From: Anaerolineales bacterium
Lineage (GTDB): Bacteria > Chloroflexota > Anaerolineae > Anaerolineales > E44-bin32
Assembly: GCA_035471625.1 (NCBI GenBank)
Contig: DATIPT010000037.1
Coordinates: 9,559 to 73,558 of the forward strand
Direction: 5' to 3'
Length of the DNA stretch: 64,000 nt
The position numbers and the translations under genes are program-made. Numbering within the stretch: position 1 is the first letter of the stretch; each line of letters starts with the position of its first letter. Below are positions 439-61,847 of this stretch, piece by piece. The notes beneath the pieces are model-generated. The model was not told where the DNA came from. It searched no databases and saw nothing but the letters and a program-made list of their open reading frames with translations.

Positions 439-2616
439 CTAGTGGATCAGGGCCGCTTGATCCTTGATCGCGCCGCGCCCGATCAACGGTTGGTCCGTCT
501 CCGGATCTCGCCCTGGCGGGGGCTCGATCGGGGTGATACTCACGGCGCACACTTTGAAATCGGGAATCTTGGCGCGGGGGTCGAGCCGGTCGCTGGTCAG
601 AACGTTGGCGGCGGCCTCGACGAAATGGAAGGGCACGAAGACCACTCCCTGCGGCGAACGGTCCGTCACCAGCGCCCGCATCTGGACCGCCCCTCGGCGG
701 GAAGCGACTTGAAGCCAGTCCCCGGTCTCCACACCCAACCGTTCGGCGTCGTCCGGGCTTAGTTCGGCGGTTGCCTCCGGCCAGATCTCATCCAGTTTGG
801 AGCGTCGGCTGAGCGTGCCGCCGTGCCAGTGATAGAGCACCCGCCCGGTGGACAGCAGGAACGGATACTCGTCATCCGGTAGCTCGCTCTCTGTCCCGAA
901 CTCGAGCGTCCAGAACTTGCCTCGGCCGCGAGGGAAGGAGTCTTGGAACAGGTATGGCGAGCCCGGGTGTTCGAAGGATGGACAGGGCCAATGGACGCCG
1001 CCTTCTCGCTCGAGTCGAGCGTAGTCGATCCCGGCGAAATCCGGCGTCAGCTGCCGCATCTCCTCCCAGATCTCAGAAGGGTGCGCGTAGCTCCACCCGG
1101 CGCTCTCCTGCTGGCCGAGGCCGGCCTCTAGGCGAAGAGCCAGGTCGCACAGGATTCGCCAATCCGGACGACTGGCGCCGACCGGCGGCAAGGCTTGCCG
1201 GACCCGCTGAATGCGGCGATCGGAATTGGTGAAGGTCCCGTCCTTTTCAGCGAACGAGACCGAAGGGAGCAGGACATCGGCCATCCGGCCTGTGGTATTG
1301 ATGAAAATGTCCTGGCACACCAGCAGGTCGAGCTTCTCGAGCACATGCTGGGCGTGACTCAAGTTGGGTTCGCTCGTGAGCGGATCTTCCCCCATGACGT
1401 ACCAGGCGCGCACCGCCCCGGCCTCGACGGCGTTGACGAGCTCGGTGATCATCAGCCCGGGCTCAGCCGGCAAGCGGTCCCGCCGCCATGCCCGGGCGAA
1501 GCGGGCATTGACCTCGGGATCCTCGACCCGCTGGTAGGCCGTGAAACAATACGGGAGCCCTCCACTGTCGGAGCAGCCTTGGACGTTGTTCTGCCCGCGC
1601 AACGGATTGAGCCCGGTTCCTTCGCGGCCCACGTGGCCGCACATCAGCGCCAGGTTCGTGATCGCCAGCGTGTTGTCCGTTCCGTGTGTGCTTTGGCTGA
1701 TGCCCATCCCCCAGTAGACCGACGCCGCCTTCGCCGTCGCGTACATCCGGGCCGCTGCCCGGATATCGCCCGCCGGAACCCCGGTCTCGGCCTCGGCCCA
1801 CTCGGGTGTGAACGGCTCAAGCGACTCTACGTAGTCCGAGAAACCCTCCGTCCGCTGCTCGATGAAAGCCGGGTTGTAGAGCCTCTCGTCAACGACCACG
1901 TGGGCCATGGCCTGCCACAGGGCGACGTCGGTCCCTGGTCGCTGGCGCAACCAGAGGGTGGCAAAGTCCGTCATCTCGACTTTGCGGGGGTCGATCACGA
2001 TCAGGCGGGCACCGTTCTGGCGGACGGCGCGCTTCAAGAAGTTGGCGATGACGGGATGGGTCTCCGTCGTGTTCGATCCGGTGACAATGAACGTATCGAG
2101 GTTCTCCATCTCGGCGATTGAGTTGCTCATGGCGCTCGAACCGATGGCCAGTTGCAGGCCGGCAACGCTCCCGGCATGGCACAGGCGGGAACAGTGGTCG
2201 ACGTTGTTCGTCCCCACGACAGCGCGCGCCAGCTTCTGGAGCAGGTAGTTGTCCTCGTTGGTCGCCTTGGCACAAGCGAAGAAGGCGACGCTATCCGGAC
2301 CATGCTTTGCCGCAGTGCGTGCCAGACGCGCGGCGACGTACTCGATCGCCTCCTCCCAGCTGACCTCCCGCCACACCGGCGGGGCCGACCGAGGCTCGTC
2401 GAGATTCGCTCGGATCAAGGGCATGCGCAGACGATCCGGATGAGACGTGAAGTCCGTTCCAAACCGGCCCTTGACGCAGAGCATCCCGTAATTGGGTGCG
2501 GAGTCGAAGGGGGCGGTTGTCCTGACGATGGCTTCGTCGCGCACGTGGAGGTCGATCTGGCACCCCACGCCGCAGAACGGACAGGTTGTACGGATCTCTT
2601 GGAGTGTGGGGCTCAT
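439..2616 (-). CDS. fdhA: Formate dehydrogenase alpha-subunit-like molybdopterin oxidoreductase, Cys-type
   Basis: N-terminal 4Fe-4S motif TTCPFCGVGCQ...LCVKGRFG. The active-site stretch VDHCSRLCHAGSV has Cys-His where Sec-His sits in FdhF-type enzymes. The track start (GTG 2640) overlaps a TATAGT -10 box, so ATG 2616 (MSPTLQEIR) is preferred. Confidence 0.8.
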   Translation of the reverse strand: MSPTLQEIRTTCPFCGVGCQIDLHVRDEAIVRTTAPFDSAPNYGMLCVKGRFGTDFTSHPDRLRMPLIRANLDEPRSAPPVWREVSWEEAIEYVAARLARTAAKHGPDSVAFFACAKATNEDNYLLQKLARAVVGTNNVDHCSRLCHAGSVAGLQLAIGSSAMSNSIAEMENLDTFIVTGSNTTETHPVIANFLKRAVRQNGARLIVIDPRKVEMTDFATLWLRQRPGTDVALWQAMAHVVVDERLYNPAFIEQRTEGFSDYVESLEPFTPEWAEAETGVPAGDIRAAARMYATAKAASVYWGMGISQSTHGTDNTLAITNLALMCGHVGREGTGLNPLRGQNNVQGCSDSGGLPYCFTAYQRVEDPEVNARFARAWRRDRLPAEPGLMITELVNAVEAGAVRAWYVMGEDPLTSEPNLSHAQHVLEKLDLLVCQDIFINTTGRMADVLLPSVSFAEKDGTFTNSDRRIQRVRQALPPVGASRPDWRILCDLALRLEAGLGQQESAGWSYAHPSEIWEEMRQLTPDFAGIDYARLEREGGVHWPCPSFEHPGSPYLFQDSFPRGRGKFWTLEFGTESELPDDEYPFLLSTGRVLYHWHGGTLSRRSKLDEIWPEATAELSPDDAERLGVETGDWLQVASRRGAVQMRALVTDRSPQGVVFVPFHFVEAAANVLTSDRLDPRAKIPDFKVCAVSITPIEPPPGRDPETDQPLIGRGAIKDQAALIH

Positions 2617-2688
2617 CCCGTCGCTTCCAATGGGGTCCACTATAGCCCAACCCTCCGAACCTTGACAAGGTCGGTCCAGATAAAGCGA

Positions 2689-16879: not shown

Positions 16880-16955
16880 TGGTGGACCCAGTGGGATTCG
16901 AACCCACGACCTTCTCAATGCCATTGAGACGCGCTCCCAACTGCGCTATGGGCCC
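16880..16955 (-). tRNA. tRNA-Ala (anticodon GGC), CCA encoded
   Basis: The cloverleaf folds by hand: acceptor GGGCCCA/UGGGUCC with the G3:U70 Ala identity pair, anticodon loop AUGGCAU and T-loop GGGUUCGAAUCCC. Confidence 0.9.
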
Positions 16956-18570: not shown

Positions 18571-18897
18571 GCTTCTTCCTCCCTTGGATGAACCCCCCGC
18601 CAGGCGTTCGGTCGGCCTGACCAGGCCTGTCCATCCCTTGCGAGGCGCGGTCCTCCGCAACCTCTCAGGTACGCTGCTTCGTCAGCCGACGGAGCGGCGC
18701 CAGACGCGGCTCCTCCGAAGGTTAAGAACCCCCTTGGCCGGGTGCCGCTTCGCGGAGATGTGCGCTCTTGCTCGGGAACTTGGCAGTCTCGTCGGACCCG
18801 CTGGACCAGACGGCCTTCTGGCCGCTCTGGCCAGAACACCGGGGGCCCCGGTCGGACCCCTATCACGCCGGCGCGGCCGCGTTTCGGCTGTCGCAGG

Positions 18898-18970
18898 TGG
18901 ACCTGGCGGGATTCGAACCCGCGACCTCTTCAGTGCGATTGAAGCGCGCTCCCAACTGCGCTACAGGCCC
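18898..18970 (-). tRNA. tRNA-Ala (anticodon CGC), CCA not fully encoded
   Basis: Acceptor GGGCCUG/CAGGUCC with G3:U70, anticodon loop AUCGCAC and T-loop GGGUUCGAAUCCC. The D-arm is identical to the other tRNA-Ala. Confidence 0.9.
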
Positions 18971-22990: not shown

Positions 22991-25069
22991 TCACTCCTCG
23001 TCCTCTTCCTTGCCGGCGTCCTTCTTGCGGGCAGCGATGATCCCTTCCGCTACATGCGCCGGGACGACCTCGTAGTTGGAGAACGACATCGTGAAGACGC
23101 CCCGCCCGCCCGTTACCGAACGGAGCTCGCTCGTGTAGCGCAGCATCTCGGCATGCGGCACCTTCGCCGTAACGATGCTCCGGCCGCGCTCGGTCTCCAT
23201 CCCCTGAACCCGCGCCCGCCGCGTGTTCAGGTCGCCGAGGACATCGCCCATGTGCTCTTCGGGGACCGTCACCCGGACGTCCATGATCGGCTCGAGCAGG
23301 ACCGGGCCGGCGTCGCGAAAGGCCGCCTTGAAGGCCTCCCGTCCGGCGGTCTCAAAAGCGACCGCCTTGGAGTCGACCGGGTGCTCCTTGCCATCGGTGA
23401 CCGCCACCCTCACGTTCTCGACCGGGTAGCCGGCGATGACGCCGCCCTTGAGGACGCCGCGTACGCCTTTTTCGATGGCCGGCATGAAGCTGTTGGAGAT
23501 CGCGCCGCCGAAGACCTCGTTCACGAACTCGAAGTCCTCTTCGGGGTTCGGCTCGATCCGCATGTGGACTTCGGCGAACTGCCCGGCGCCGCCGGTCTGC
23601 TTCTTGTGGCGGTGGGCGGCCTCACCGCTTCGGGTGATGGTTTCCCGATACGAGACGCGCGGCGTCTCGGTCTGCAACCCGACCTGGAACTTGTTCTCGG
23701 CCTTGCGGATGGCGACATCGATATGCTGATCGCCCATCCCCTGGAGGATCGTCTGGTTGGTGCTGGCCTCCTGGTGCCAGGAGAGGGTTGGGTCTTCTTC
23801 GCACAGGCGCGTCAGCGAGGCCCCCATCTTGGTCGAGTCGGCCTGGGTCTTGGGGAGCACGGCCACGGCGTACAAGGCGTTCGGGTACTCGGGCACGGGG
23901 ACGAGGATCCGCTGCGCCTTATCGCCCAGCGTGTCTCCGGTCCCGGCGGCCGCCAGCTTGGCCACGGTTCCGATGTCGCCCGCATGCAGCTTCTGGACCG
24001 GAATCTGTTCCTTGCCGCGCATCACATGCAAGTTGCCGAGCCGCTCTTCGGCTCCCTTGGTGTGGTTCCACAAGCGGCTATCCGAGGCGAGGCTCCCAGA
24101 AAAGACGCGCAGGTAGGTCAGCTTCCCCACGAAGGGGTCGGCCGTCGTCTTCCAAACGTACACGGCCAACGGTCCGGCGTCGGACCCGGTAAGTTCCACT
24201 TCCCCCGAGGGTCCCTCGCCACGGACCGGGGGCGCCTCGCCCGGTGACGGAAACCATTCGATGATGGAGTCCAGCAGCGGTAGCGCACCGATCCCGGCGG
24301 TCCCGGCGGCGACGAAGACCGGCACCACACGGCCCGACCGGACGGCCTGACGAAAGCCCTTGGCGATCTCTTCGGCCGAGAGCTCCTCCCCGCCAAGGTA
24401 CTTCTCGAGCAGGGAGTCATCGCCCTCGGCGGCCGCTTCGACCACGACGATCCGGGCGTCTTCGGCCTCCGAGCGCAGGTCCTCCGGGACCTCGCCAATC
24501 TCCTTGCCGTCGCCGAGGCGGACCTTCATCGTCAGCAGGTCGAGGGCGCCCTTGAAGCCGGCCTTCTCGCCCACCGGGAGCTGGACCGGAACGAATGCCG
24601 TCTCGCTGGAAAGGCTGCGGACGGACTCCAAGGCCCTGGCGAAGCTGGCGTTGTCGCGATCCATCTTGCTGATGACGACGAAGCGAGGCAAAGAGAGCTG
24701 GTCGCAGTACCCCCAGACCACCTCCGTCCCAACTTCGACCCCGGAGACGGCGTCGATCAAGACGACCGCGCCTTCCACGACACGCAGGGCGGAGATCACC
24801 TCGCCGACAAAGTCGGTGTAGCCGGGCGTGTCGAGCAGGTTGATCTTGGTGTCGGTGTGCTCGAGCGGGACGACAGCGGTAGAGAGGGAGAGCTTGCGGC
24901 GGACTTCCTCTTCCTCGAAGTCGGAGGCGGTGTTTCCCTCCTCGACCTTTCCCATGCGGGTCGTCACTCCGGTGGCAAAGAGCGCAGCCTCGACCAGCGA
25001 TGTCTTGCCCGCGCCGCCATGCGAAACCAGCGCGACATTCCGGAGATGATCGGTCGCGTATTCCTTCAT
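22991..25069 (-). CDS. fusA: Elongation factor G family GTPase (stand-alone paralogue, not in an rps/str context)
   Basis: G1 SHGGAGKTS, G3 DTPGYTDF, and EF-G domains II-V (e.g. GDTLGD, HPVDSK). Confidence 0.88.
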   Translation of the reverse strand: MKEYATDHLRNVALVSHGGAGKTSLVEAALFATGVTTRMGKVEEGNTASDFEEEEVRRKLSLSTAVVPLEHTDTKINLLDTPGYTDFVGEVISALRVVEGAVVLIDAVSGVEVGTEVVWGYCDQLSLPRFVVISKMDRDNASFARALESVRSLSSETAFVPVQLPVGEKAGFKGALDLLTMKVRLGDGKEIGEVPEDLRSEAEDARIVVVEAAAEGDDSLLEKYLGGEELSAEEIAKGFRQAVRSGRVVPVFVAAGTAGIGALPLLDSIIEWFPSPGEAPPVRGEGPSGEVELTGSDAGPLAVYVWKTTADPFVGKLTYLRVFSGSLASDSRLWNHTKGAEERLGNLHVMRGKEQIPVQKLHAGDIGTVAKLAAAGTGDTLGDKAQRILVPVPEYPNALYAVAVLPKTQADSTKMGASLTRLCEEDPTLSWHQEASTNQTILQGMGDQHIDVAIRKAENKFQVGLQTETPRVSYRETITRSGEAAHRHKKQTGGAGQFAEVHMRIEPNPEEDFEFVNEVFGGAISNSFMPAIEKGVRGVLKGGVIAGYPVENVRVAVTDGKEHPVDSKAVAFETAGREAFKAAFRDAGPVLLEPIMDVRVTVPEEHMGDVLGDLNTRRARVQGMETERGRSIVTAKVPHAEMLRYTSELRSVTGGRGVFTMSFSNYEVVPAHVAEGIIAARKKDAGKEEDEE

Positions 25070-25185
25070 CGGTTGATGAGCCTCCCGCGGGGTGTCGTGG
25101 GTCGAATTCTAAGGGATGAGAGGAGGGCTGTCAAAGGATTCGGTTCGCGACGAGCGACCCTCACGCGCCGAGGCAACCTCGTGAA

Positions 25186-25194
25186 TGATAGAAT
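25186..25194 (+). promoter_or_regulatory. Extended -10 promoter (TGaTAGAAT) giving a near-leaderless transcript
   Basis: TGATAGAAT ends 9 nt before ATG 25204, and there is no SD in between. Confidence 0.55.
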
Positions 25195-25203
25195 CGTCAT
25201 GCC

Positions 25204-25689
25204 ATGGCGTCCGTGGTCAACCAGTACTCCTTCCTCCTCGCCGGCATTGGCGCGCTGGCTCTGCTGGCGGCCATCCTGTTCCGCGATGGCATCAAGTCCG
25301 GCGACTTCCTGGCCCTGGGCGCCCTGACCCTCGGTCTGGCGCTTGCCTATGGCCTGCTCCGCCCCGGCCAGGGGACGGCCGATACGACCGACGCCGTCCG
25401 GGCCGAAATCGGCAAGGGCACCCCAGTCCTGCTTGAATTCCAGAGCCCCTTCTGACTCGGCTGCATGGCGGTCAGACCCGTCGTGGACGGAGTCGAGCTT
25501 GAGTACGAGGGCAAGATGAAGGTCATCCGACTCAACGTCCAACATCCCGCCACGCGCCCGCTGGCGGAGGCCTACCGATTCCAGTACACGCCGACGTTTG
25601 TCCTGCTCGGCCCCGACGGGACCGAGCTATGGCGCTCGGTCGGCGCGCTCGATCCCGAGGCCGTTCGAGACAGCCTGGGGTCCCCTTGA
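25204..25689 (+). CDS. Membrane-anchored thioredoxin-fold selenoprotein (U-x-x-C), in-frame TGA at 25453-25455 read as selenocysteine
   Basis: Track ORFs 25204..25455 and 25465..25689 are in the same frame. The joined product has 2 TM helices, then PVLLEFQSPF-U-LGC-MAVRPVVDGVELEYEGKMKVIRLNVQ...YTPTFVLLGPDG. That is a thioredoxin layout with the TGA at the first redox Cys. Confidence 0.75.
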
Positions 25690-26243
25690 GGCGACGCCTC
25701 CGATTTGAATGGAAATACTGGAAAGGCCGTCCAGCATGGGATAGCGGCATCACGCCGCCGGAAGTCCTCTCCTACCTGGCGGATCGCGCCCCAGGCCGTG
25801 CGATCGATCTCGGATGCGGGACCGGCACGAACGCGATCACCCTGGCCGCCGCCGGGTGGCAGGTCACGGCCGTCGACTTCTCCTCAAGGGCTCTCGCCAC
25901 AGCCCGGCGCAAGGCCCGAGCGGCCGGCGCGGACATCCGGTTTCTGCACCGGAGCGTCACCCACCTGGGGGACATTGGTGGTCCCTTCGACCTGGCCCTC
26001 GACATCGGATGCTTCCACAGCCTGGGTGCCGCAGATCGATCCAGCTACGGGCGCGAGGTCGCCCGCCTGGTGCAGCCTGGCGGGACCTTGCTTCTGTACG
26101 CCTTCATCGATCCGGAAGGCGGTTGGCCGGCCGAGGACGACGTCCGGGCCGCGTGCGAGCCCGCTTTCGAGCTCGATGCCCTTCAGCGCGGTGAGTTTGA
26201 GGGCAGACCCTCGGGATGGTTCTGGTGGACTCGCAGGCCGTGA
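25686..26243 (+). CDS. Class I SAM-dependent methyltransferase (TehB/TPMT-like small-molecule type)
   Basis: Motif I AIDLGCGTGTNAITLAAAGWQVTAVDFS and post-I/II motifs. A TTG start at 25686 overlaps the upstream TGA (cTTGAgg). The longer track ORF would overlap the selenoprotein gene. Confidence 0.75.
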   Translation: MRRRLRFEWKYWKGRPAWDSGITPPEVLSYLADRAPGRAIDLGCGTGTNAITLAAAGWQVTAVDFSSRALATARRKARAAGADIRFLHRSVTHLGDIGGPFDLALDIGCFHSLGAADRSSYGREVARLVQPGGTLLLYAFIDPEGGWPAEDDVRAACEPAFELDALQRGEFEGRPSGWFWWTRRP

Positions 26244-27214
26244 AACGGCGAGTGTTTGTCCTCTTCCTCGACGGCGTAGGGCTGGGCGTCGCCGATCCGG
26301 AACGGAACCCGTTTTCCGTCGCGCGAACGCGTCACATCCGTGAGGCCCTGGGAGGACAACCGCTCCTGCAGGCCAGCGCCCCGTGTGTAGGGCCGCAGGC
26401 GACACTGGTCTCGATCGACGCCTGCCTCGAGATGCCCGGCGATCCCCAGTCGGCCTCCGGGCAGGCTGCGCTCCTGACCGGCCGGAACGTCCCGCAGGAG
26501 ATCGGCGGGCACTATGGGCCCAAGCCCAACCCGCCGATCGCCGGGATCCTGCGGGAGGGCAACCTGTTCACCGAGGTTGTCCGCCGCGGCGGCACGGCAG
26601 GCCTGCTCAACGCCTATCCGCCGAGGTACTTCGAAATGATCGAGAGCGGCCGCCGCCTGTATTCGTCGATTCCTTTGGCGCTCGACGCCGCCGGGCTTCC
26701 GCTCCGCACGGCGACCGACATCCAAGAGGGCGTCGCCTTGTCGGCCGACTTCACCGGGAAGGGCTGGTCGGAGCAACCCGGCTTTCCTCCAGTGCCGATC
26801 TATGCGCGCGCCGAATCGGGCGGGAAGATGGCCGACCTCGCCCGCCAGTTCGACCTGTCGTGGTTCGACTTCTGGCCCAGCGACGTCGCCGGGCATCGTT
26901 CCAAGATGGCCCAGGCGGTCGAGCTCGTCGAGCATCTGGATGAGGTCCTCGGCGGATTCCTGGAGGCCTGGCGCGACGGCCCAGACTTGGCCCTGATCAC
27001 CTCCGACCACGGCAACCTGGAGGACCTCTCCGATCGCGGTCATACCCGCAACCCTGTCCCCGGCATCTTGATCGGTCCGGCCGATCTGCGGGCCGAACTC
27101 GCGCCACGCCTCCGGCGCCTGACGGACTTCTACGACGTCATTCTCGACGTGCTGTTTGGGAATGGACCGTCTCGCCACCATGGCGACGAGCCGGTCCCGG
27201 TTCGGCCTCCTTGA
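26240..27214 (+). CDS. Metalloenzyme-superfamily protein (phosphopentomutase / cofactor-independent PGM / alkaline-phosphatase-like)
   Basis: N-terminal FVLFLDGVGLG and C-terminal LITSDHGNLEDLSDRGHTRNPVP metal-ligand motifs. A GTG at 26240 overlaps the upstream stop (GTGA). Confidence 0.65.
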   Translation: MKRRVFVLFLDGVGLGVADPERNPFSVARTRHIREALGGQPLLQASAPCVGPQATLVSIDACLEMPGDPQSASGQAALLTGRNVPQEIGGHYGPKPNPPIAGILREGNLFTEVVRRGGTAGLLNAYPPRYFEMIESGRRLYSSIPLALDAAGLPLRTATDIQEGVALSADFTGKGWSEQPGFPPVPIYARAESGGKMADLARQFDLSWFDFWPSDVAGHRSKMAQAVELVEHLDEVLGGFLEAWRDGPDLALITSDHGNLEDLSDRGHTRNPVPGILIGPADLRAELAPRLRRLTDFYDVILDVLFGNGPSRHHGDEPVPVRPP

Positions 27215-27258: not shown

Positions 27259-27744
27259 ATGCCAGTTGACGGCGATCTTCTTCGGGAGCTGATGCGGCAA
27301 TGGGCCACTGGCGTGACGCTCGTCACCGTCCAGGGTGGAGACGGACCCCACGGGATGACCGTCAGCTCCTTCACCTCCCTGTCGCTCGATCCTCCACTCA
27401 TCCTGATCTCTCTAGAGAAGGGCTCTCGCACGCACCAGATGGTGAGTGACACCGGTCGGTTTGCCGTAGTCTTGCTACACGTGGGGCAGCAATCCATCGC
27501 CGAGCGATTCGCCGGGGGAATCCCCGACAGTCGGGCGCGCTTCGACGGGATGCCCTACCGCCTATCGGCCGGCGGATCTCCGATCCTCGACGACGGGCTG
27601 GCCTATCTGGACTGCCGGGTCGCCGAATCCTTTGGGGCTGGAACCCACACAATCTTCATCGGCGAGGTCCTCGGCGGCGAGGTCACTGGCGACGCCGCTC
27701 CGCTGCTCTACTTCAATCGGAGCTACCGGCAGCTCGGCCCATGA
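27259..27744 (+). CDS. Flavin reductase-like FMN-binding protein
   Basis: LMRQWATGVTLVTV...HGMTVSSFTSLSLDPPLILISL is the split-barrel flavin reductase signature. Confidence 0.85.
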   Translation: MPVDGDLLRELMRQWATGVTLVTVQGGDGPHGMTVSSFTSLSLDPPLILISLEKGSRTHQMVSDTGRFAVVLLHVGQQSIAERFAGGIPDSRARFDGMPYRLSAGGSPILDDGLAYLDCRVAESFGAGTHTIFIGEVLGGEVTGDAAPLLYFNRSYRQLGP

Positions 27745-27754
27745 GGCCCGCGCA

Positions 27755-28321
27755 GTGGCCGGCTCCCTGAGTCCCAGCGAACGATCCGCCTTGCTGAGCC
27801 TGGCGCGACGGGCCGTTGGACTGGCCGCCGAGCGACAACCGCTTCCCCCCATCGATCCGGGCGCCTTCTCCGCCTCCCTTCAGGAGGCCGGGTGCTCGTT
27901 CGTCACCCTGACCCGCCAGGGCGCACTCCGCGGCTGCATCGGCGGGCTCGAGCCACTGCTTCCCCTGGTCGAGGACGTCTGGCAACATGCGTACGCCGCA
28001 GCGCGGGAGGACCCGCGCTTCGCGCCGGTCTCACCCGACGAGCTCGGCCAGATCGCGATCGAGATCTCCCGGCTGACCCCGGCCGCCCCCCTCGCTGGCC
28101 CGCTCGACCAGATCCCCTCGGCGCTCCACCCGGGAATCGACGGGGTCATCCTCCAGCAGGGCCGCCAGCGAGCAACTTTCCTTCCCCAAGTCTGGGAGAA
28201 GATCGAAGACCCCGAGGTCTTCCTCGACATGTTGGCGGACAAGGCCGGGTTGCCGCGGAGCGCCTGGCGCACCGGGGATGCCGAAGTCTTGGTGTACCAG
28301 GTGGAGTCCTTCGAGGAGTAG
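27755..28321 (+). CDS. AMMECR1-domain protein (AmmeMemoRadiSam system protein A-like)
   Basis: GCSFVTLTRQGALRGCIGGLEP...REDPRFAPV...ATFLPQVWE. The GTG 27755 start was chosen to avoid overlap with the flavin reductase gene, and the start remains uncertain. Confidence 0.8.
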   Translation: MAGSLSPSERSALLSLARRAVGLAAERQPLPPIDPGAFSASLQEAGCSFVTLTRQGALRGCIGGLEPLLPLVEDVWQHAYAAAREDPRFAPVSPDELGQIAIEISRLTPAAPLAGPLDQIPSALHPGIDGVILQQGRQRATFLPQVWEKIEDPEVFLDMLADKAGLPRSAWRTGDAEVLVYQVESFEE

Positions 28322-35394: not shown

Positions 35395-35548
35395 CAGGCG
35401 GCTCCGGCGCACGCGCTTCTTTCTTTCCTCCACCGCCATCGGCTCGCGCCTCCCACCAGGCCCTGTGGCTTCCCCTCGGCGACGCAAGGATGAGTGTCCA
35501 GTGAGCCTTCCCGGCGGGGACTACCCTCGTCCAGGGAGCGGTGATAGC

Positions 35549-38509
35549 ATGCCAGGCAGGATGGACCCTGAAGAGCCGCTGCCGGCGGACGCCCCCCAGA
35601 AGCCCTTCGGCCCTGGAGCCGAGACTCCCGACGCGTCCCCCACGATCCCCGATCCCCTGGGACCGACCGCCCTTCCCCAGCGGGTGACCGCGCGTGACGT
35701 TGGCGCAACCAAGGTCACGCCGGCGGCGTTCGTCCCTCCGCCGCGGCGGCCACGTCGCCGGAGCATGCCCACCGGCGGCGGTGGATGCCTGCTGCGCATG
35801 GCGATCATCGCCGTCTTCCTCTTGGCGGCCGTGGTGATCCTGGGACTCAGCGTTGCCGTCTTCCAGTACTTCTCTCTCGCCGCGACGCTCCCCTCCGTCG
35901 AGGATCTGCAGTCCCACGCCGCACAGTTTGAGACAACCCGCATCCTCGATCGTGACGGAAACCTGTTGTACGAGATCCTCGATCCCCAGGCCGGTCGGCG
36001 CACGTATACACCGATCGATGAGATGTCGCCGTACATCCTGGCGGCCGTCATCTCAACCGAGGACTCCCAGTTCTACAGTCACCCGGGCTTCGACCCTCTG
36101 GCGATCGCCCGGGCCGTGTGGGAGAACCTTGTATCGAGCGGTGAGGGCCCGGGTGCTTCGACCATCACGCAGCAGATTGCCCGCAACCTGCTGTTCACGC
36201 GGGAGGAAGCGTCAGAGCGCTCGGCACTGCGCAAGATCCGCGAAATCCTCCTGGCGGCCGAGATCACGCGGCGGTACAGCAAGGACGAGATCCTCGAGCT
36301 TTACCTGAATCAGGTCTACTTCGGCAACCTGGCGTACGGGATCGAGGCCGCCGCCGAGACGTACTTCGACACCACCGCCGATCGGTTGACCCTGAGCCAG
36401 GCCTCGTTCCTGGCGGGCCTGATCCAGGCGCCGTCGGTCTACGATATCTACTCCAACCGCGAGGCGACCCTGCTCCGGCACCGCCAGATCCTCGGATTGA
36501 TGGCGATCACCTCGGACCAGCAGGGCTGCATCGCCGTGTCGAATGCGCCTGAGCCGGTCTGCGTGACGCCGGAAGCGGCCGGCGCCGCCGCAGCCGGAAT
36601 CGAGAATTTCACCTTCCCCGAGCCCGACATCGCCATCCGCGATCCCCACTGGGTGCAGTTTATCCGGGAGGAACTCGAACGGCGCTTCGATCCCCAGACG
36701 ATCTACCGCTCCGGCTTCACGGTGCATACGTCCCTCGATCCGGAGATCCAGGACCTGGCCGAGGAAGCGGTGCGCACGCATGTCTCCGCCCTGGCCGAGC
36801 ACAACGCCAGCAACGGCGCGTTGGTGGCCATCCGGCCCGCGACCGGCGAGATCCTGGCGATGGTCGGGTCGGCCGATTTCTACAACGAGGCGATCGATGG
36901 ACAGGTCAACATGGCGGTCGCCCCGCGCCAGCCGGGATCGTCGATCAAGCCTCTGACCTATGCCGCCGCGTTTGAAAAGGGATGGACCCCGGCGACGTTG
37001 ATCTGGGATGTCCCGTCGGAATTCCCGCCATCCGGGAATCCGAATGACCCGCGCGAGCCGTACAAGCCGGTCAACTACGACCGCAAGTTCCACGGGCCGG
37101 TGACGGCGAGGACCGCTCTGGGATCCTCCTACAACATCCCGGCCGTCAAGACGCTCGACTTCGTCGGGATCTATGACAACCCCGAGACCCCTCTGGAAGA
37201 CGGCCTGGTGTCGTTCGCCCGCCGTCTCGGAATCACGACGCTCGACCGGGACGACTACGGCTTGGCCTTGACTCTCGGCGGCGGCGATGTCTCTTTGCTC
37301 GAACTCACCGGCGCGTACGCCGTGTTCGCCAACAACGGGGGCCGCGTGCCTCCTGTGGGGATCACCCGCATCGAGGACTCGCGCGGCGAGGTCATCTTCG
37401 AATACGAGCCGCCGGCCGACGACCCGGTCGTCAGCCCCGAACACGCGTACCTGATCACCTCGATCCTGGCCGACAACGGCGCCCGCACGCCGGCGTTTGG
37501 CCCCAACTCGATCCTGCGCCTCCCCTTCGACGCGGCCGTCAAGACCGGCACGACCAACGATTTCCGTGACAACTGGACGCTGGGATATACCCCCGACCTG
37601 GCGGTCGGCGTGTGGATCGGCAACGCCGACTACACCCCGATGGATGACATCTCGGGCGTCGCCGGCGCTGGTCCGATCTGGAATCAGGTCATGCAGGGAG
37701 CCATCCCGATCGTCGCTCCCGGCGGCCCAAGCGGCTTCTCTCGCCCACCGGGGATCATCGAACGCGTCGTATGCGCCGTGTCAGGCGCCGAGCCCTCCGA
37801 ATGGTGCCCGGCCCAGCGCATCGAGTTCTTCGCAGAGGATCAGCCGCCTCTCTCGAAGGAGAAAGACCTCTGGCAAAAGCCGTGGGTCGACTCTTTTAGC
37901 CTGCTCCTGGCCTCGAGCGCCTGCGCCGACTACGCCACGCAGAAGTTCGGCTTGGATGTCTCCGATCCCTGGGCCCGCAAGTGGCTCGAGGAGGATGAAC
38001 AGGGGAAGCGCTGGGCGGAAGAGCACGGCTTCGAAGACGAAAAGGTCTTCTTCGTCCCGCAGGACGTCTGCACGGAAGACACCCCCCGCCCGGTCGTCGG
38101 CTTTACGGGTCCGCCGGAGGGGACCGTGCTCTCGACCAGCCCAATCGCCCTCTTCGGCCAGGCCGACTCGCCGATCGACTTTCAGGATTGGATCATCGAG
38201 GCCGGGATCGGCGACGATCCTGGCTCCTGGCCCGATATCGGCCGCGGCGAAGAGCCCGTCCGGCAGCCCGGCCACCTGATGGACTGGGATCCGCAGGGCT
38301 ACCCAAATGGGCCGATCACGCTGCGCCTTACGGTCCGCAACAAGGCCGGCGGCAAGGCCTCCGACGTGCTCCATCTCCGCCTGAACCTTCCCGCCCCCAC
38401 GGCAACGCCAACTTCCACGCCGACGCCGACGTTCACGCCCACCCATACGCCCACACCAACAGCGACTTCGACCTCCACCCCGACGCCCACGCACTCCCCG
38501 ACACCGTGA
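35549..38509 (+). CDS. Class A penicillin-binding protein (GT51 transglycosylase + transpeptidase) with a long C-terminal extension
   Basis: GT51 motifs EDSQFYSHPGFD and RKIRE. Transpeptidase motifs SSIKP, SSYN and KTGTTND. ATG 35549 is preferred (GGGAG upstream), and the track start is GTG 35465. Confidence 0.88.
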   Translation: MPGRMDPEEPLPADAPQKPFGPGAETPDASPTIPDPLGPTALPQRVTARDVGATKVTPAAFVPPPRRPRRRSMPTGGGGCLLRMAIIAVFLLAAVVILGLSVAVFQYFSLAATLPSVEDLQSHAAQFETTRILDRDGNLLYEILDPQAGRRTYTPIDEMSPYILAAVISTEDSQFYSHPGFDPLAIARAVWENLVSSGEGPGASTITQQIARNLLFTREEASERSALRKIREILLAAEITRRYSKDEILELYLNQVYFGNLAYGIEAAAETYFDTTADRLTLSQASFLAGLIQAPSVYDIYSNREATLLRHRQILGLMAITSDQQGCIAVSNAPEPVCVTPEAAGAAAAGIENFTFPEPDIAIRDPHWVQFIREELERRFDPQTIYRSGFTVHTSLDPEIQDLAEEAVRTHVSALAEHNASNGALVAIRPATGEILAMVGSADFYNEAIDGQVNMAVAPRQPGSSIKPLTYAAAFEKGWTPATLIWDVPSEFPPSGNPNDPREPYKPVNYDRKFHGPVTARTALGSSYNIPAVKTLDFVGIYDNPETPLEDGLVSFARRLGITTLDRDDYGLALTLGGGDVSLLELTGAYAVFANNGGRVPPVGITRIEDSRGEVIFEYEPPADDPVVSPEHAYLITSILADNGARTPAFGPNSILRLPFDAAVKTGTTNDFRDNWTLGYTPDLAVGVWIGNADYTPMDDISGVAGAGPIWNQVMQGAIPIVAPGGPSGFSRPPGIIERVVCAVSGAEPSEWCPAQRIEFFAEDQPPLSKEKDLWQKPWVDSFSLLLASSACADYATQKFGLDVSDPWARKWLEEDEQGKRWAEEHGFEDEKVFFVPQDVCTEDTPRPVVGFTGPPEGTVLSTSPIALFGQADSPIDFQDWIIEAGIGDDPGSWPDIGRGEEPVRQPGHLMDWDPQGYPNGPITLRLTVRNKAGGKASDVLHLRLNLPAPTATPTSTPTPTFTPTHTPTPTATSTSTPTPTHSPTP
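38390..38506 (+). repeat. Pro/Thr-rich low-complexity coding repeat at the PBP C-terminus
   Basis: PAPTATPTSTPTPTFTPTHTPTPTATSTSTPTPTHSPTP, encoded by reiterated ACN-CCN codons. Confidence 0.8.
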
Positions 38510-55379: not shown

Positions 55380-55477
55380 GCGGTTTCCTTTTGGCGTACG
55401 TCCCGCTCTCCCCGCCGGCAAGGGGCCTGGGCGAGCACCTTGACCCGCCCGCCGCAATCAGGATAGACTAGAGACAC

Positions 55478-55575
55478 CAACGCAAACGGGGAGCCCGGCG
55501 CGCCGGGCTGAGAGGAGGGGTTCGCGGCCCTCGACCCGAGGAACCTGATCCGGATAATGCCGGCGTAGGGATGGC
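55478..55575 (+). promoter_or_regulatory. TPP (THI-box) riboswitch aptamer
   Basis: GGGGAGC..CTGAGAGG..ACCCGAGGAACCTGATCCGGATAATGCCGGCGTAGGGA contains the conserved CUGAGA and ACCUGAUCCGGAUAAUGCCGGCG..GGGA cores. Confidence 0.9.
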
Positions 55576-55590
55576 ACCAAGCGGCATCCG

Positions 55591-61561: not shown

Positions 61562-61634
61562 TCCTCGGTAGCTCAATCGGCAGAGCGGGCGGCTGTTAAC
61601 CGCTAGGTTCCAGGTTCGAGTCCTGGCCGAGGAG
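61562..61634 (+). tRNA. tRNA-Asn (anticodon GTT), CCA not encoded
   Basis: Acceptor UCCUCGG/CCGAGGA, anticodon loop CUGUUAA and T-arm CCAGGUUCGAGUCCUGG. Confidence 0.9.
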
Positions 61635-61847
61635 CCTCTCCTCTTCATCCCGTCCCTCCCATTCTCCGATCGCCCTCGACCACCGTGCCCGGTTGCACGA
61701 CCTCTCCTTGCGGCGGTGCCCACGGTCATGCTTTCCGCTCTCATCGATCTCTTATAGGCAGGTTACACGGGCGTTACATCGGGCCGCTACCCTCCGGCCA
61801 TACCACGTCGGAGACGCGGACTCTCCGACTCGTTGCGGAGGTTGAAC

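Follow-up and report, generated by a model that had tools for sequence, protein, structure and literature searches.

The 64-kb stretch of Anaerolineales DNA analysed here (hereafter the window) very probably carries a single selenoprotein gene that automatic annotation divides into two: it would encode a membrane-anchored protein of the thioredoxin fold, in which an in-frame UGA is recoded as selenocysteine (Sec) by means of a hairpin just downstream (Table 1). A preliminary description of this DNA had proposed such a U-x-x-C protein, split at its Sec codon, and the proposal is strongly supported by homologues carrying either Cys or TGA at the same codon, by a covarying hairpin, by conserved gene spacing, by Pfam, by a profile alignment with solved structures and by an AlphaFold model of a relative.

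Two open reading frames (ORFs) of 83 and 74 aa (25204..25455 and 25465..25689) lie in the same frame, with the TGA at 25453-55 and three codons between them. When the TGA is read through, they join into a product of 161 residues, MASVVNQYSF...PVLLEFQSPF-*-LGCMAVRPVVDG...YTPTFVLLGPDGTELWRSVG..., with YTPTFVLLG further on; the coordinates and the translation were re-read and hold in every respect. TGA is an ordinary stop here, being also the gene's own terminator (25687-89), and recoding must therefore be signalled locally. Because the exact 83-aa N-terminal product recurs in 46 sample blocks, and in the 23 independent contigs carrying it that were read, a sequencing or assembly error cannot account for the TGA; in all 23 contigs the public gene calls show the split into 83 and 74 aa. 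A scan of the window for further hidden Sec codons, taken as TGA in frame and flanked on either side by coding signal, returned a redox-type context only at 25453.

A species survey, with one genome per species, found 274 relatives, and the best 80 of these, all of them metagenome-assembled genomes of Anaerolineae/Chloroflexota, were analysed. The aligned codon is TGA in 53 of the 80 loci and TGC or TGT in the remaining 27. In all 53 TGA loci the frame past the TGA is open and conserved to the normal end, and the TGA column aligns to an invariant Cys of the protein homologues. Recurrence of TGA at the same codon position in 53 of 80 other species is far beyond chance. The search for homologues with Cys at this column, suggested at the outset, thus yielded 27 loci out of 80 at the DNA level and, in a protein search, some 55 homologues of full length (about 160 aa) with the motif EFQSP[YF]-C-x-x-C; what it did not yield is a family consistently made of two genes with a genuine stop, given the 27 Cys forms and the conserved downstream frame. 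An in-frame UGA opposite Cys in homologues, with coding conservation on either side, is the pattern by which a selenoprotein gene is recognised, and it is present here. A rough neighbour-joining tree with Fitch parsimony places Sec at the root and calls for at least 13 Sec/Cys switches.

Ten further database proteins, of 93-139 aa, stop exactly at ...EFQSP[YF] and are therefore gene calls truncated at the Sec codon; in the DNA of four of them the TGA is followed, in frame, by x-x-C and the remaining domain. Public records of TGA-form genes that end at the Sec codon include P0066 and P0064 (NCBI; P0064 is locus L005 10001..10321), and one such stub bears the name 'LPXTG cell wall anchor domain-containing protein', wrongly given on account of its hydrophobic N-terminus.

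For scoring against Pfam and NCBIfam, Cys was substituted for Sec in the joined protein. It reaches 33.2 bits for PF00085 (Thioredoxin; threshold 23.5) over residues 66-154 and 29.8 bits for PF13098 (Thioredoxin_2; threshold 27); a thioredoxin-fold match is hence present downstream of 25465, a point on which the preliminary description had let its case depend. The canonical TrxA/TrxC equivalogs of NCBIfam are not reached (TIGR01068 40.8 vs 96.8; TrxC 30.6 vs 125; TrxA 29.5 vs 138), and there is no match at E <= 0.01 to the curated NCBIfam models of thioredoxin-like selenoproteins (SaoT NF040730, HUIPC NF047660, VPGU NF041383) or to the Redoxin and AhpC-TSA families (PF08534 and PF00578). A profile of the full-length homologues aligns with solved thioredoxins with E = 2e-15 and puts the TGA column on the first Cys of WCGPC and T-P-T on the I-P-T cis-Pro segment; T129, P130 and F132 are invariant in the homologue alignment A2. 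The nearest full-length Cys homologue, P0001 (55% identity), was modelled with AlphaFold2 from a 51-sequence alignment at a mean predicted local distance difference test score (pLDDT) of 93.3; the model shows long N-terminal helices at 8-27 and 31-51, followed by a thioredoxin fold, and Foldseek aligns it to thioredoxins with TM-scores of about 0.8, with DsbD-gamma also among the matches. Profile alignment, model and Foldseek together display the features that define a thioredoxin: CxxC at the N-terminus of alpha-1, the cis-Pro loop and the beta-alpha-beta-alpha-beta-beta-alpha topology. The assignment of the joined product as a thioredoxin-fold U-x-x-C protein, with the TGA predicted to stand for the first, nucleophilic Cys and TPT to provide the cis-Pro, is thus strongly supported by alignment and modelling, in agreement with what had been claimed from the outset.

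Table 1. Positions of the gene, its putative signals, its neighbours and the tRNAs of the window
Feature	Position	Strand	Remarks
Extended -10-like box TGATAGAAT	25186..25194	+	9 nt before ATG 25204; very short or absent leader implied
Probable selenoprotein gene	25204..25689	+	161 codons plus stop; redox motif U84-L-G-C87; genuine TGA stop 25687-89
Two predicted transmembrane helices (about residues 9-26 and 35-52)	25228..25359	+	Short K/R-rich loop between them; helical-hairpin membrane anchor
In-frame UGA, probably read as Sec	25453..25455	+	Aligns with the nucleophilic N-terminal Cys of CxxC
SECIS-type hairpin	25477..25491	+	Stem 25478-82/25486-90, apical loop GUG 25483-85, 27 nt past the UGA
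Outer 7-bp stem	25456-62 with 25497-91	+	Encloses the hairpin; all seven pairs form (one G-U)
Pro130 codon of the T-P-T motif	25591..25593	+	Counterpart of the thioredoxin cis-proline, by alignment
Class I SAM-dependent small-molecule methyltransferase	25686..26243	+	185 aa from TTG 25686; TTGA overlap with the thioredoxin stop; in-frame alternative ATG 25629
Alkaline-phosphatase/phosphomutase-superfamily metalloenzyme	26240..27214	+	324 aa from GTG 26240; GTGA overlap; in-frame alternative ATG 26216
EF-G-like GTPase	22991..25069	-	Divergent neighbour; Pfam GTP_EFTU, EFG_III, EFG_IV, EFG_C; context only; intergenic region 25070..25203
Flavin reductase	27259..27744	+	Pfam PF01613, 159 bits; downstream in 13/85 loci; context only
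AMMECR1-domain protein	27755..28321	+	PF01871; downstream in 17/85 loci; context only
tRNA-Ala (GGC and CGC anticodons)	16880..16955 and 18896..18970	-	
tRNA-Asn	61562..61636	+	

The hairpin downstream of the UGA

In the TGA genes a hairpin with the consensus CCCRUC-GUG-GAYGGG lies at +24 to +38 from the TGA, at fixed spacing; its stem has 5 bp in the window, against a range of 4-8 bp in other loci. At least four contiguous base pairs are formed in 55 of 58 Sec loci as against 7 of 27 Cys loci (Fisher's exact p = 8e-11). Over eight pairs at fixed coordinates, 88.4% of the cells are paired in the alignment of Sec loci as compared with 50.5% in that of Cys loci, and the Sec figure becomes 23-44% when the partner is shifted by 1-3 columns. 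Compensatory pairs are frequent in the Sec loci, none being unpaired (GC 31, AU 23 and GU 3 at one position; CG 50, UA 6 and GC 1 at another), and much of the covariation is synonymous: GTC (Val) is matched by GAC (Asp) in 29 loci and ATC (Ile) by GAT (Asp) in 22, and the Pro codon with the following codon likewise reads CCC-GGG in 33 Sec loci, CCT-AGG in 6 and CCG-CGG in one. The codon pairs of the hairpin are used freely in Cys-form genes. Run without constraints on a 57-sequence consensus, RNAalifold recovers the four core pairs.

The model of the bacterial selenocysteine insertion sequence (SECIS), known as bSECIS and employed in bSECISearch, describes a loop of 3-9 nt on a stem of 4-16 bp with G in the first two loop positions, placed 16-37 nt from UGA to loop and with a minimum free energy of -7.5 kcal/mol or lower (PMC13188914). 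Checked against this model, as the preliminary description had advised for the region past the TGA, the hairpin of the window agrees on all four counts, with its GUG loop, its 5-bp stem, a distance of 27 nt and -9.2 kcal/mol for the hairpin alone (PMC13188914); together with the outer stem the value is -13.1 kcal/mol. Of the two stems put forward originally, both pair in this genome, and the inner one is the hairpin that is conserved and covaries in Sec forms. The outer stem is not recovered in the 57-sequence consensus; it was dropped as a part of the SECIS and, judging from the alignment, is lineage-specific or fortuitous.

With the SECIS of E. coli fdhF and with the bSECIS model the hairpin shares its location inside the ORF as a stem-loop, a small apical loop starting with G-U, the 27 nt between UGA and loop and an adequate stability; it is set apart by a very small loop (3 nt), a short conserved stem and the lack of sequence similarity to the fdhF element, and SelB binding is putative. 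A copy of the hairpin with 6-8 bp is kept at +24..+38 from the Cys codon in four Cys forms (L041, L043, L050 and L078), where it looks like a relic of a recent replacement of Sec by Cys.

The scheme that emerges would run as follows. Transcription would set out from the extended -10 promoter, leaving almost no leader, and the UGA at 25453-55 would be recoded during translation, the hairpin 27 nt further on acting as a bacterial SECIS that recruits SelB with Sec-tRNA(Sec). Selenocysteine would then be inserted in place of termination, so as to give a redox centre, Sec84-Leu-Gly-Cys87, at the N-terminal end of the thioredoxin fold's first helix, and the enzyme would pass back and forth between selenol/thiol and selenenylsulfide, acting as a thiol-disulfide oxidoreductase that most likely works at the outer face of the membrane. 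The methyltransferase and metalloenzyme genes would follow through overlapping stop and start codons.

Rival readings of the UGA and the selenocysteine machinery

That the TGA is a true stop, the locus being a pseudogene, an assembly error or two small genes (a transmembrane stub and a 74-aa fragment), is what automatic callers imply by annotating two ORFs, and the second ORF does have an ATG at 25465. This reading is scarcely credible, given that the sequence is identical in many independent assemblies, that in 53 other species the TGA occupies exactly the codon of the catalytic Cys and the amino acids downstream are fully conserved, that the resolving Cys, three codons past the TGA, is conserved though it lies upstream of the ATG at 25465, and that the hairpin is selected at synonymous sites in TGA forms only. 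Neither half is a sensible gene by itself, as had been argued early on: no Shine-Dalgarno sequence precedes 25465, and the 74-aa piece has no redox motif. For practical purposes the comparative data exclude that the stop is genuine, the locus a pseudogene or the two genes separate. Recoding of the UGA to cysteine or another standard residue, for example by a tRNA-Sec-like tRNA-Cys(UCA) with a SelB paralogue, is very improbable as well. A selC*/selB* system of this kind has been described in delta-proteobacteria and would also use a SECIS-like hairpin (PMC5389517); Cys is evidently acceptable at this position in the 27 Cys-form species, and Sec machinery was not seen in the window, its flanks or the related loci. 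Yet the reports of selC*/selB* are from Firmicutes, Thermodesulfobacteria, Nitrospirae and Proteobacteria and not from Chloroflexi, and the two co-occur there with a full Sec system (PMC5389517), SelB and Sec-type formate dehydrogenases are reported in Anaerolineae (PMC4959059), and it is difficult to see why 53 of 80 species should keep both UGA and hairpin just to insert Cys if a TGC or TGT codon would serve.

Several observations weigh against a Sec-decoded gene in the window and should be set beside the evidence given above. No selA, selB, selD or tRNA-Sec is found in the 64 kb or in about 10 kb on each side; ARAGORN detected no tRNA-Sec, either in the window or among 88 related loci (about 0.98 Mb), and tblastn with SelA, SelB and SelD of E. 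coli, a weak test, gave nothing below E = 0.1 in about 0.98 Mb of related loci. A permissive Rfam scan of 25400-25560 returned chance microRNA-like matches only and no SECIS family; the conserved stem is short, and part of its sequence is also under the constraint of the K-P-V/I-V-D-G peptide that it encodes. The modelled structure belongs to P0001, a Cys homologue 55% identical to the window protein, and the placement of the thioredoxin domain outside the membrane (see below) is a prediction of the positive-inside rule. Lastly, the formate-dehydrogenase-like protein of the window, encoded at 439..2640 on the minus strand and endowed with Fe4S4, Molybdopterin and Molydop_binding domains, has a Cys (...HCSRLCHAGS... 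/ VDHCSRLCHAGS) at the place where Sec-type formate dehydrogenases (FDHs) carry Sec. The genome seems to use Sec in its thioredoxin but not in its FDH. At gathering thresholds, Rfam finds in the whole window three tRNAs and one thiamine pyrophosphate (TPP) riboswitch only.

Published work speaks for Sec decoding in this lineage. Selenoproteins are known in Chloroflexi (PMC1794560), as is a tRNA-Sec of the 8/4 type (PMC5389517), and a single-cell study reported Sec-specific elongation factors in Anaerolineales (PMC4959059). In the same study, Anaerolinea thermophila UNI-1 and the single amplified genome (SAG) An-J10 encode SelB together with a Cys-type FDH and have no selenoprotein annotated (PMC4959059). 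A Sec-thioredoxin beside a Cys-FDH matches this case of SelB without a Sec-FDH in Anaerolinea (PMC4959059), and the presence of SelB without an annotated selenoprotein in Anaerolineae would be explained by a hidden selenoprotein such as the one described here.

Membrane anchor, promoter and neighbouring genes

The two N-terminal hydrophobic helices noticed in the preliminary description are both seen in the AlphaFold2 model of P0001. The mean number of K+R residues is 3.0 in the loop between the helices (11 residues), 0.14 in the N-tail and 1.39 in the segment after the second helix, which is net acidic. By the positive-inside rule, the basic loop would therefore lie inside and the thioredoxin domain outside, and the domain is probably exposed on the outer face of the cytoplasmic membrane. 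About 5 kb past the right end of the window, in locus L089 (4620..5204), there is a TlpA/Redoxin-type gene with AhpC-TSA, Redoxin and Thioredoxin matches, adjoining lgt and a copper-type P-type ATPase; the organism therefore also owns a conventional extracytoplasmic thiol-disulfide oxidoreductase.

In close relatives of the window (L006, L055, L008, L012, L017, L019, L025 and L034) the sequence TGATAnAAT stands 7-10 nt before the start codon; in other clades it is found about 22-25 nt upstream of the start, with GGAGG in between. The TGATAGAAT site was not scored in a consensus promoter scan because it has no -35 hexamer. From the position of the box, a leaderless or nearly leaderless transcript is plausible in the clade of the window. 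On the minus strand, the consensus scan returned TTGACA-17-TAGAAT at 25134-25106, a strong near-consensus promoter-like site for the EF-G-like gene.

The 4-nt overlaps TTGA (25686-89) and GTGA (26240-43), said to link the next two genes, are present on re-reading of the sequence. The methyltransferase, a class I enzyme dependent on S-adenosylmethionine (SAM), is found in 72 of 85 loci and the metalloenzyme in 63, in the same arrangement with Sec and Cys forms. Of 80 loci, 66 have an interval of -17 to +13 nt between the thioredoxin stop and the gene that follows, and methyltransferase and metalloenzyme overlap by 4-10 nt in 19 of 55. Gene order and spacing thus lend good support to predicted co-transcription, and frequent translational coupling, of the thioredoxin with the genes downstream. 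The notion that it heads a coupled three-gene operon stands as regards the spacing; it fails to extend to one clade (L008, L012, L017, L019, L034, L047 and L059), which has the motif U-G-x-C and no methyltransferase gene, the metalloenzyme coming directly after the thioredoxin gene and being followed by the flavin reductase. A terminator-like hairpin (GCCGTGAAACGGC, with a T-rich tail; 26237..26249, plus strand) sits exactly on the stop of the methyltransferase and the start of the metalloenzyme (GTGA 26240-43); it may be due to chance, the number of such sites in the region being no higher than in shuffles, or may modulate coupling.

The TTG start of the methyltransferase is used by gene callers in L002-L004. 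The protein scores 72.7 bits for Methyltransf_25, 35.6 for TPMT (threshold 26) and 29.9 for TehB (threshold 20.4), the TehB match spanning only positions 21-71 of 193 in the profile, the SAM-binding part; it reaches no NCBIfam equivalog threshold (NCBIfam TehB 40.2 vs 218), and its best relatives among solved structures are YtkW, a Methanosarcina methyltransferase, Rv0560c, a thiol methyltransferase and TehB. It had been described as TehB/TPMT-like: that it is a SAM methyltransferase is correct, and it passes both Pfam thresholds, TehB over part of the profile only, the TPMT and TehB scores being generic or borderline. The third gene encodes, as proposed, a metalloenzyme of the phosphomutase/alkaline-phosphatase superfamily, for which PF01676 (67.4 bits, residues 210-290) is the only family matched. 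It does not qualify as a cofactor-independent phosphoglycerate mutase or phosphopentomutase (TIGR01307 41.8 vs 330), and its matches to solved structures are cofactor-independent phosphoglycerate mutases, in the C-terminal metal-binding region only. It has more than 5000 relatives; the 120 among them that were listed share 58-99% identity with it and go under the names 'hypothetical' or 'iPGM', which tell nothing further of its function.

The most constant neighbour is the EF-G-like gene, upstream and divergent in 82 of 85 loci, with Sec and Cys forms alike. A role for it as recoding factor was considered and rejected, the protein being of the EF-G and not of the EF-Tu/SelB type and being linked equally to Cys forms. 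Its P-loop, SHGGAGKTS, is unusual.

Where the thioredoxin domain faces bears on what the gene cluster may do. An orientation with the N-terminus inside and the loop outside would place the domain in the cytoplasm, where the selenoprotein could be recycled by thioredoxin reductase and could serve the co-transcribed enzymes. Its closest relatives in sequence and structure are cytoplasmic thioredoxins, not proteins of the TlpA/ResA type, the enzymes with which it would be co-transcribed look cytoplasmic, and no CcdA/DsbD gene lies nearby; for all that, such an orientation is rather unlikely, as the basic loop, the N-tail almost free of basic residues and the acidic segment after the second helix predict the domain to be outside, and as DsbD-gamma, a periplasmic thioredoxin-like domain, is among the structural matches. 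More doubtful still is a module for methylation or detoxification of chalcogens (Se/Te) or thiols, in which the selenoprotein would work directly with the methyltransferase and the metalloenzyme. Tight stop/start coupling in 66 of 80 loci, the order thioredoxin, methyltransferase, metalloenzyme in most loci, and a methyltransferase above the Pfam thresholds of both TPMT and TehB, with a thiol methyltransferase and TehB among its structural relatives, would fit it. The same block, however, accompanies the 27 Cys forms and is therefore not selenium-specific; the U-G-x-C clade does without the methyltransferase and several loci without the metalloenzyme; the best methyltransferase matches are generic (NCBIfam TehB 40 vs 218); the thioredoxin domain is predicted to be extracytoplasmic, when both enzymes, having no signal peptide or transmembrane segment, look cytoplasmic; and the EF-G-like gene next to it is more constant still, which points to synteny across the class. 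The chalcogen or thiol-redox handling module of the preliminary description accordingly finds no specific support.

Elsewhere in the window, the TPP riboswitch (55477..55587, plus strand; 64.6 bits in Rfam) stands upstream of a gene cluster related to thiamine, which encodes thiamine pyrophosphokinase, an ABC permease, a binding protein similar to NMT1/THI5 and an ABC ATPase, and a class A penicillin-binding protein (35465..38509, plus strand), with transglycosylase and transpeptidase domains, has a long C-terminal tail of low complexity rich in Pro, Thr and Ser (...PTATPTSTPTPTFTPTHTPTPTATSTSTPTPTHSPTP).

Relation to known selenoproteins and meaning for the Anaerolineae

Thioredoxin-fold UxxC proteins are among the best-known types of bacterial selenoproteins, and the finding will not surprise a specialist in the field. 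Sec-containing thioredoxins (PF00085 UxxC, e.g. that of Treponema denticola, PMC13188914) share with the window protein the fold, Sec in place of the nucleophilic Cys, a SECIS hairpin in the coding region just downstream and orthologues in Cys form. They differ in that the window protein has a two-helix anchor and EFQSP[YF]-U-x-x-C instead of W-C/U-G-P-C, its subfamily scoring far below the TrxA/TrxC equivalogs and being found, in the searches made, in Anaerolineae only. The UxxC selenoproteins of PF13098 that go by the name 'Thiol:disulfide interchange protein' (Zhang et al. 2006, PMC1794560; PMC13188914) likewise have PF13098 and UxxC and are probably extracytoplasmic; the homologues found include no delta-proteobacterial member, and the relationship is at most distant. 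With TlpA, ResA and CcmG (DsbE) the protein has in common a CxxC domain of the thioredoxin fold anchored on the outside of the cytoplasmic membrane, and of its database homologues one carries the name 'TlpA family protein disulfide reductase' and a second is called 'cytochrome c-type biogenesis protein'; those proteins, however, have a single anchor and belong to the Redoxin/AhpC-TSA families, whereas the window protein has a helical-hairpin anchor and finds its best structural matches in plain thioredoxins. The second gene resembles TehB and bacterial TPMT in the class I SAM methyltransferase fold and in a length of about 185-200 aa, but scores much higher in generic families, its closest solved relatives being YtkW and the Methanosarcina methyltransferase.

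The preliminary description had not recognised the module as described. This holds at most for the present subfamily, given that thioredoxin-fold UxxC selenoproteins are an established class. What sets the subfamily apart is the helical-hairpin anchor, the EFQSP[YF]-U-x-x-C signature and the restriction to Anaerolineae, with the Sec form in the majority; BSepDB, a homology-based database of bacterial selenoproteins (PMC13326102), may list it under thioredoxin already.

A wider proposition, improbable as it stands, takes Sec to be the original and still prevailing state of a membrane thioredoxin common to the whole class Anaerolineae, and this protein to be a main reason why SelB is kept even beside a Cys-FDH (the 'orphan SelB' of Anaerolinea thermophila), with selenium-dependent expression of the downstream genes or an undescribed thiol/chalcogen pathway in addition. 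If so, read-through of the UGA would tie the expression of methyltransferase and metalloenzyme to selenium supply by way of translational coupling.

No new mechanism is revealed by the gene. It does correct a systematic annotation error, for it is split or truncated in most Anaerolineae genomes, and it provides a concrete selenoprotein client for the Sec machinery of a large, mostly uncultured class. With at least 13 inferred Sec/Cys switches, and a SECIS hairpin that decays after the loss of Sec, the subfamily amounts to a natural experiment, useful for the study of how a SECIS constrains coding sequence and of the reasons for keeping Sec in a thiol-disulfide oxidoreductase.

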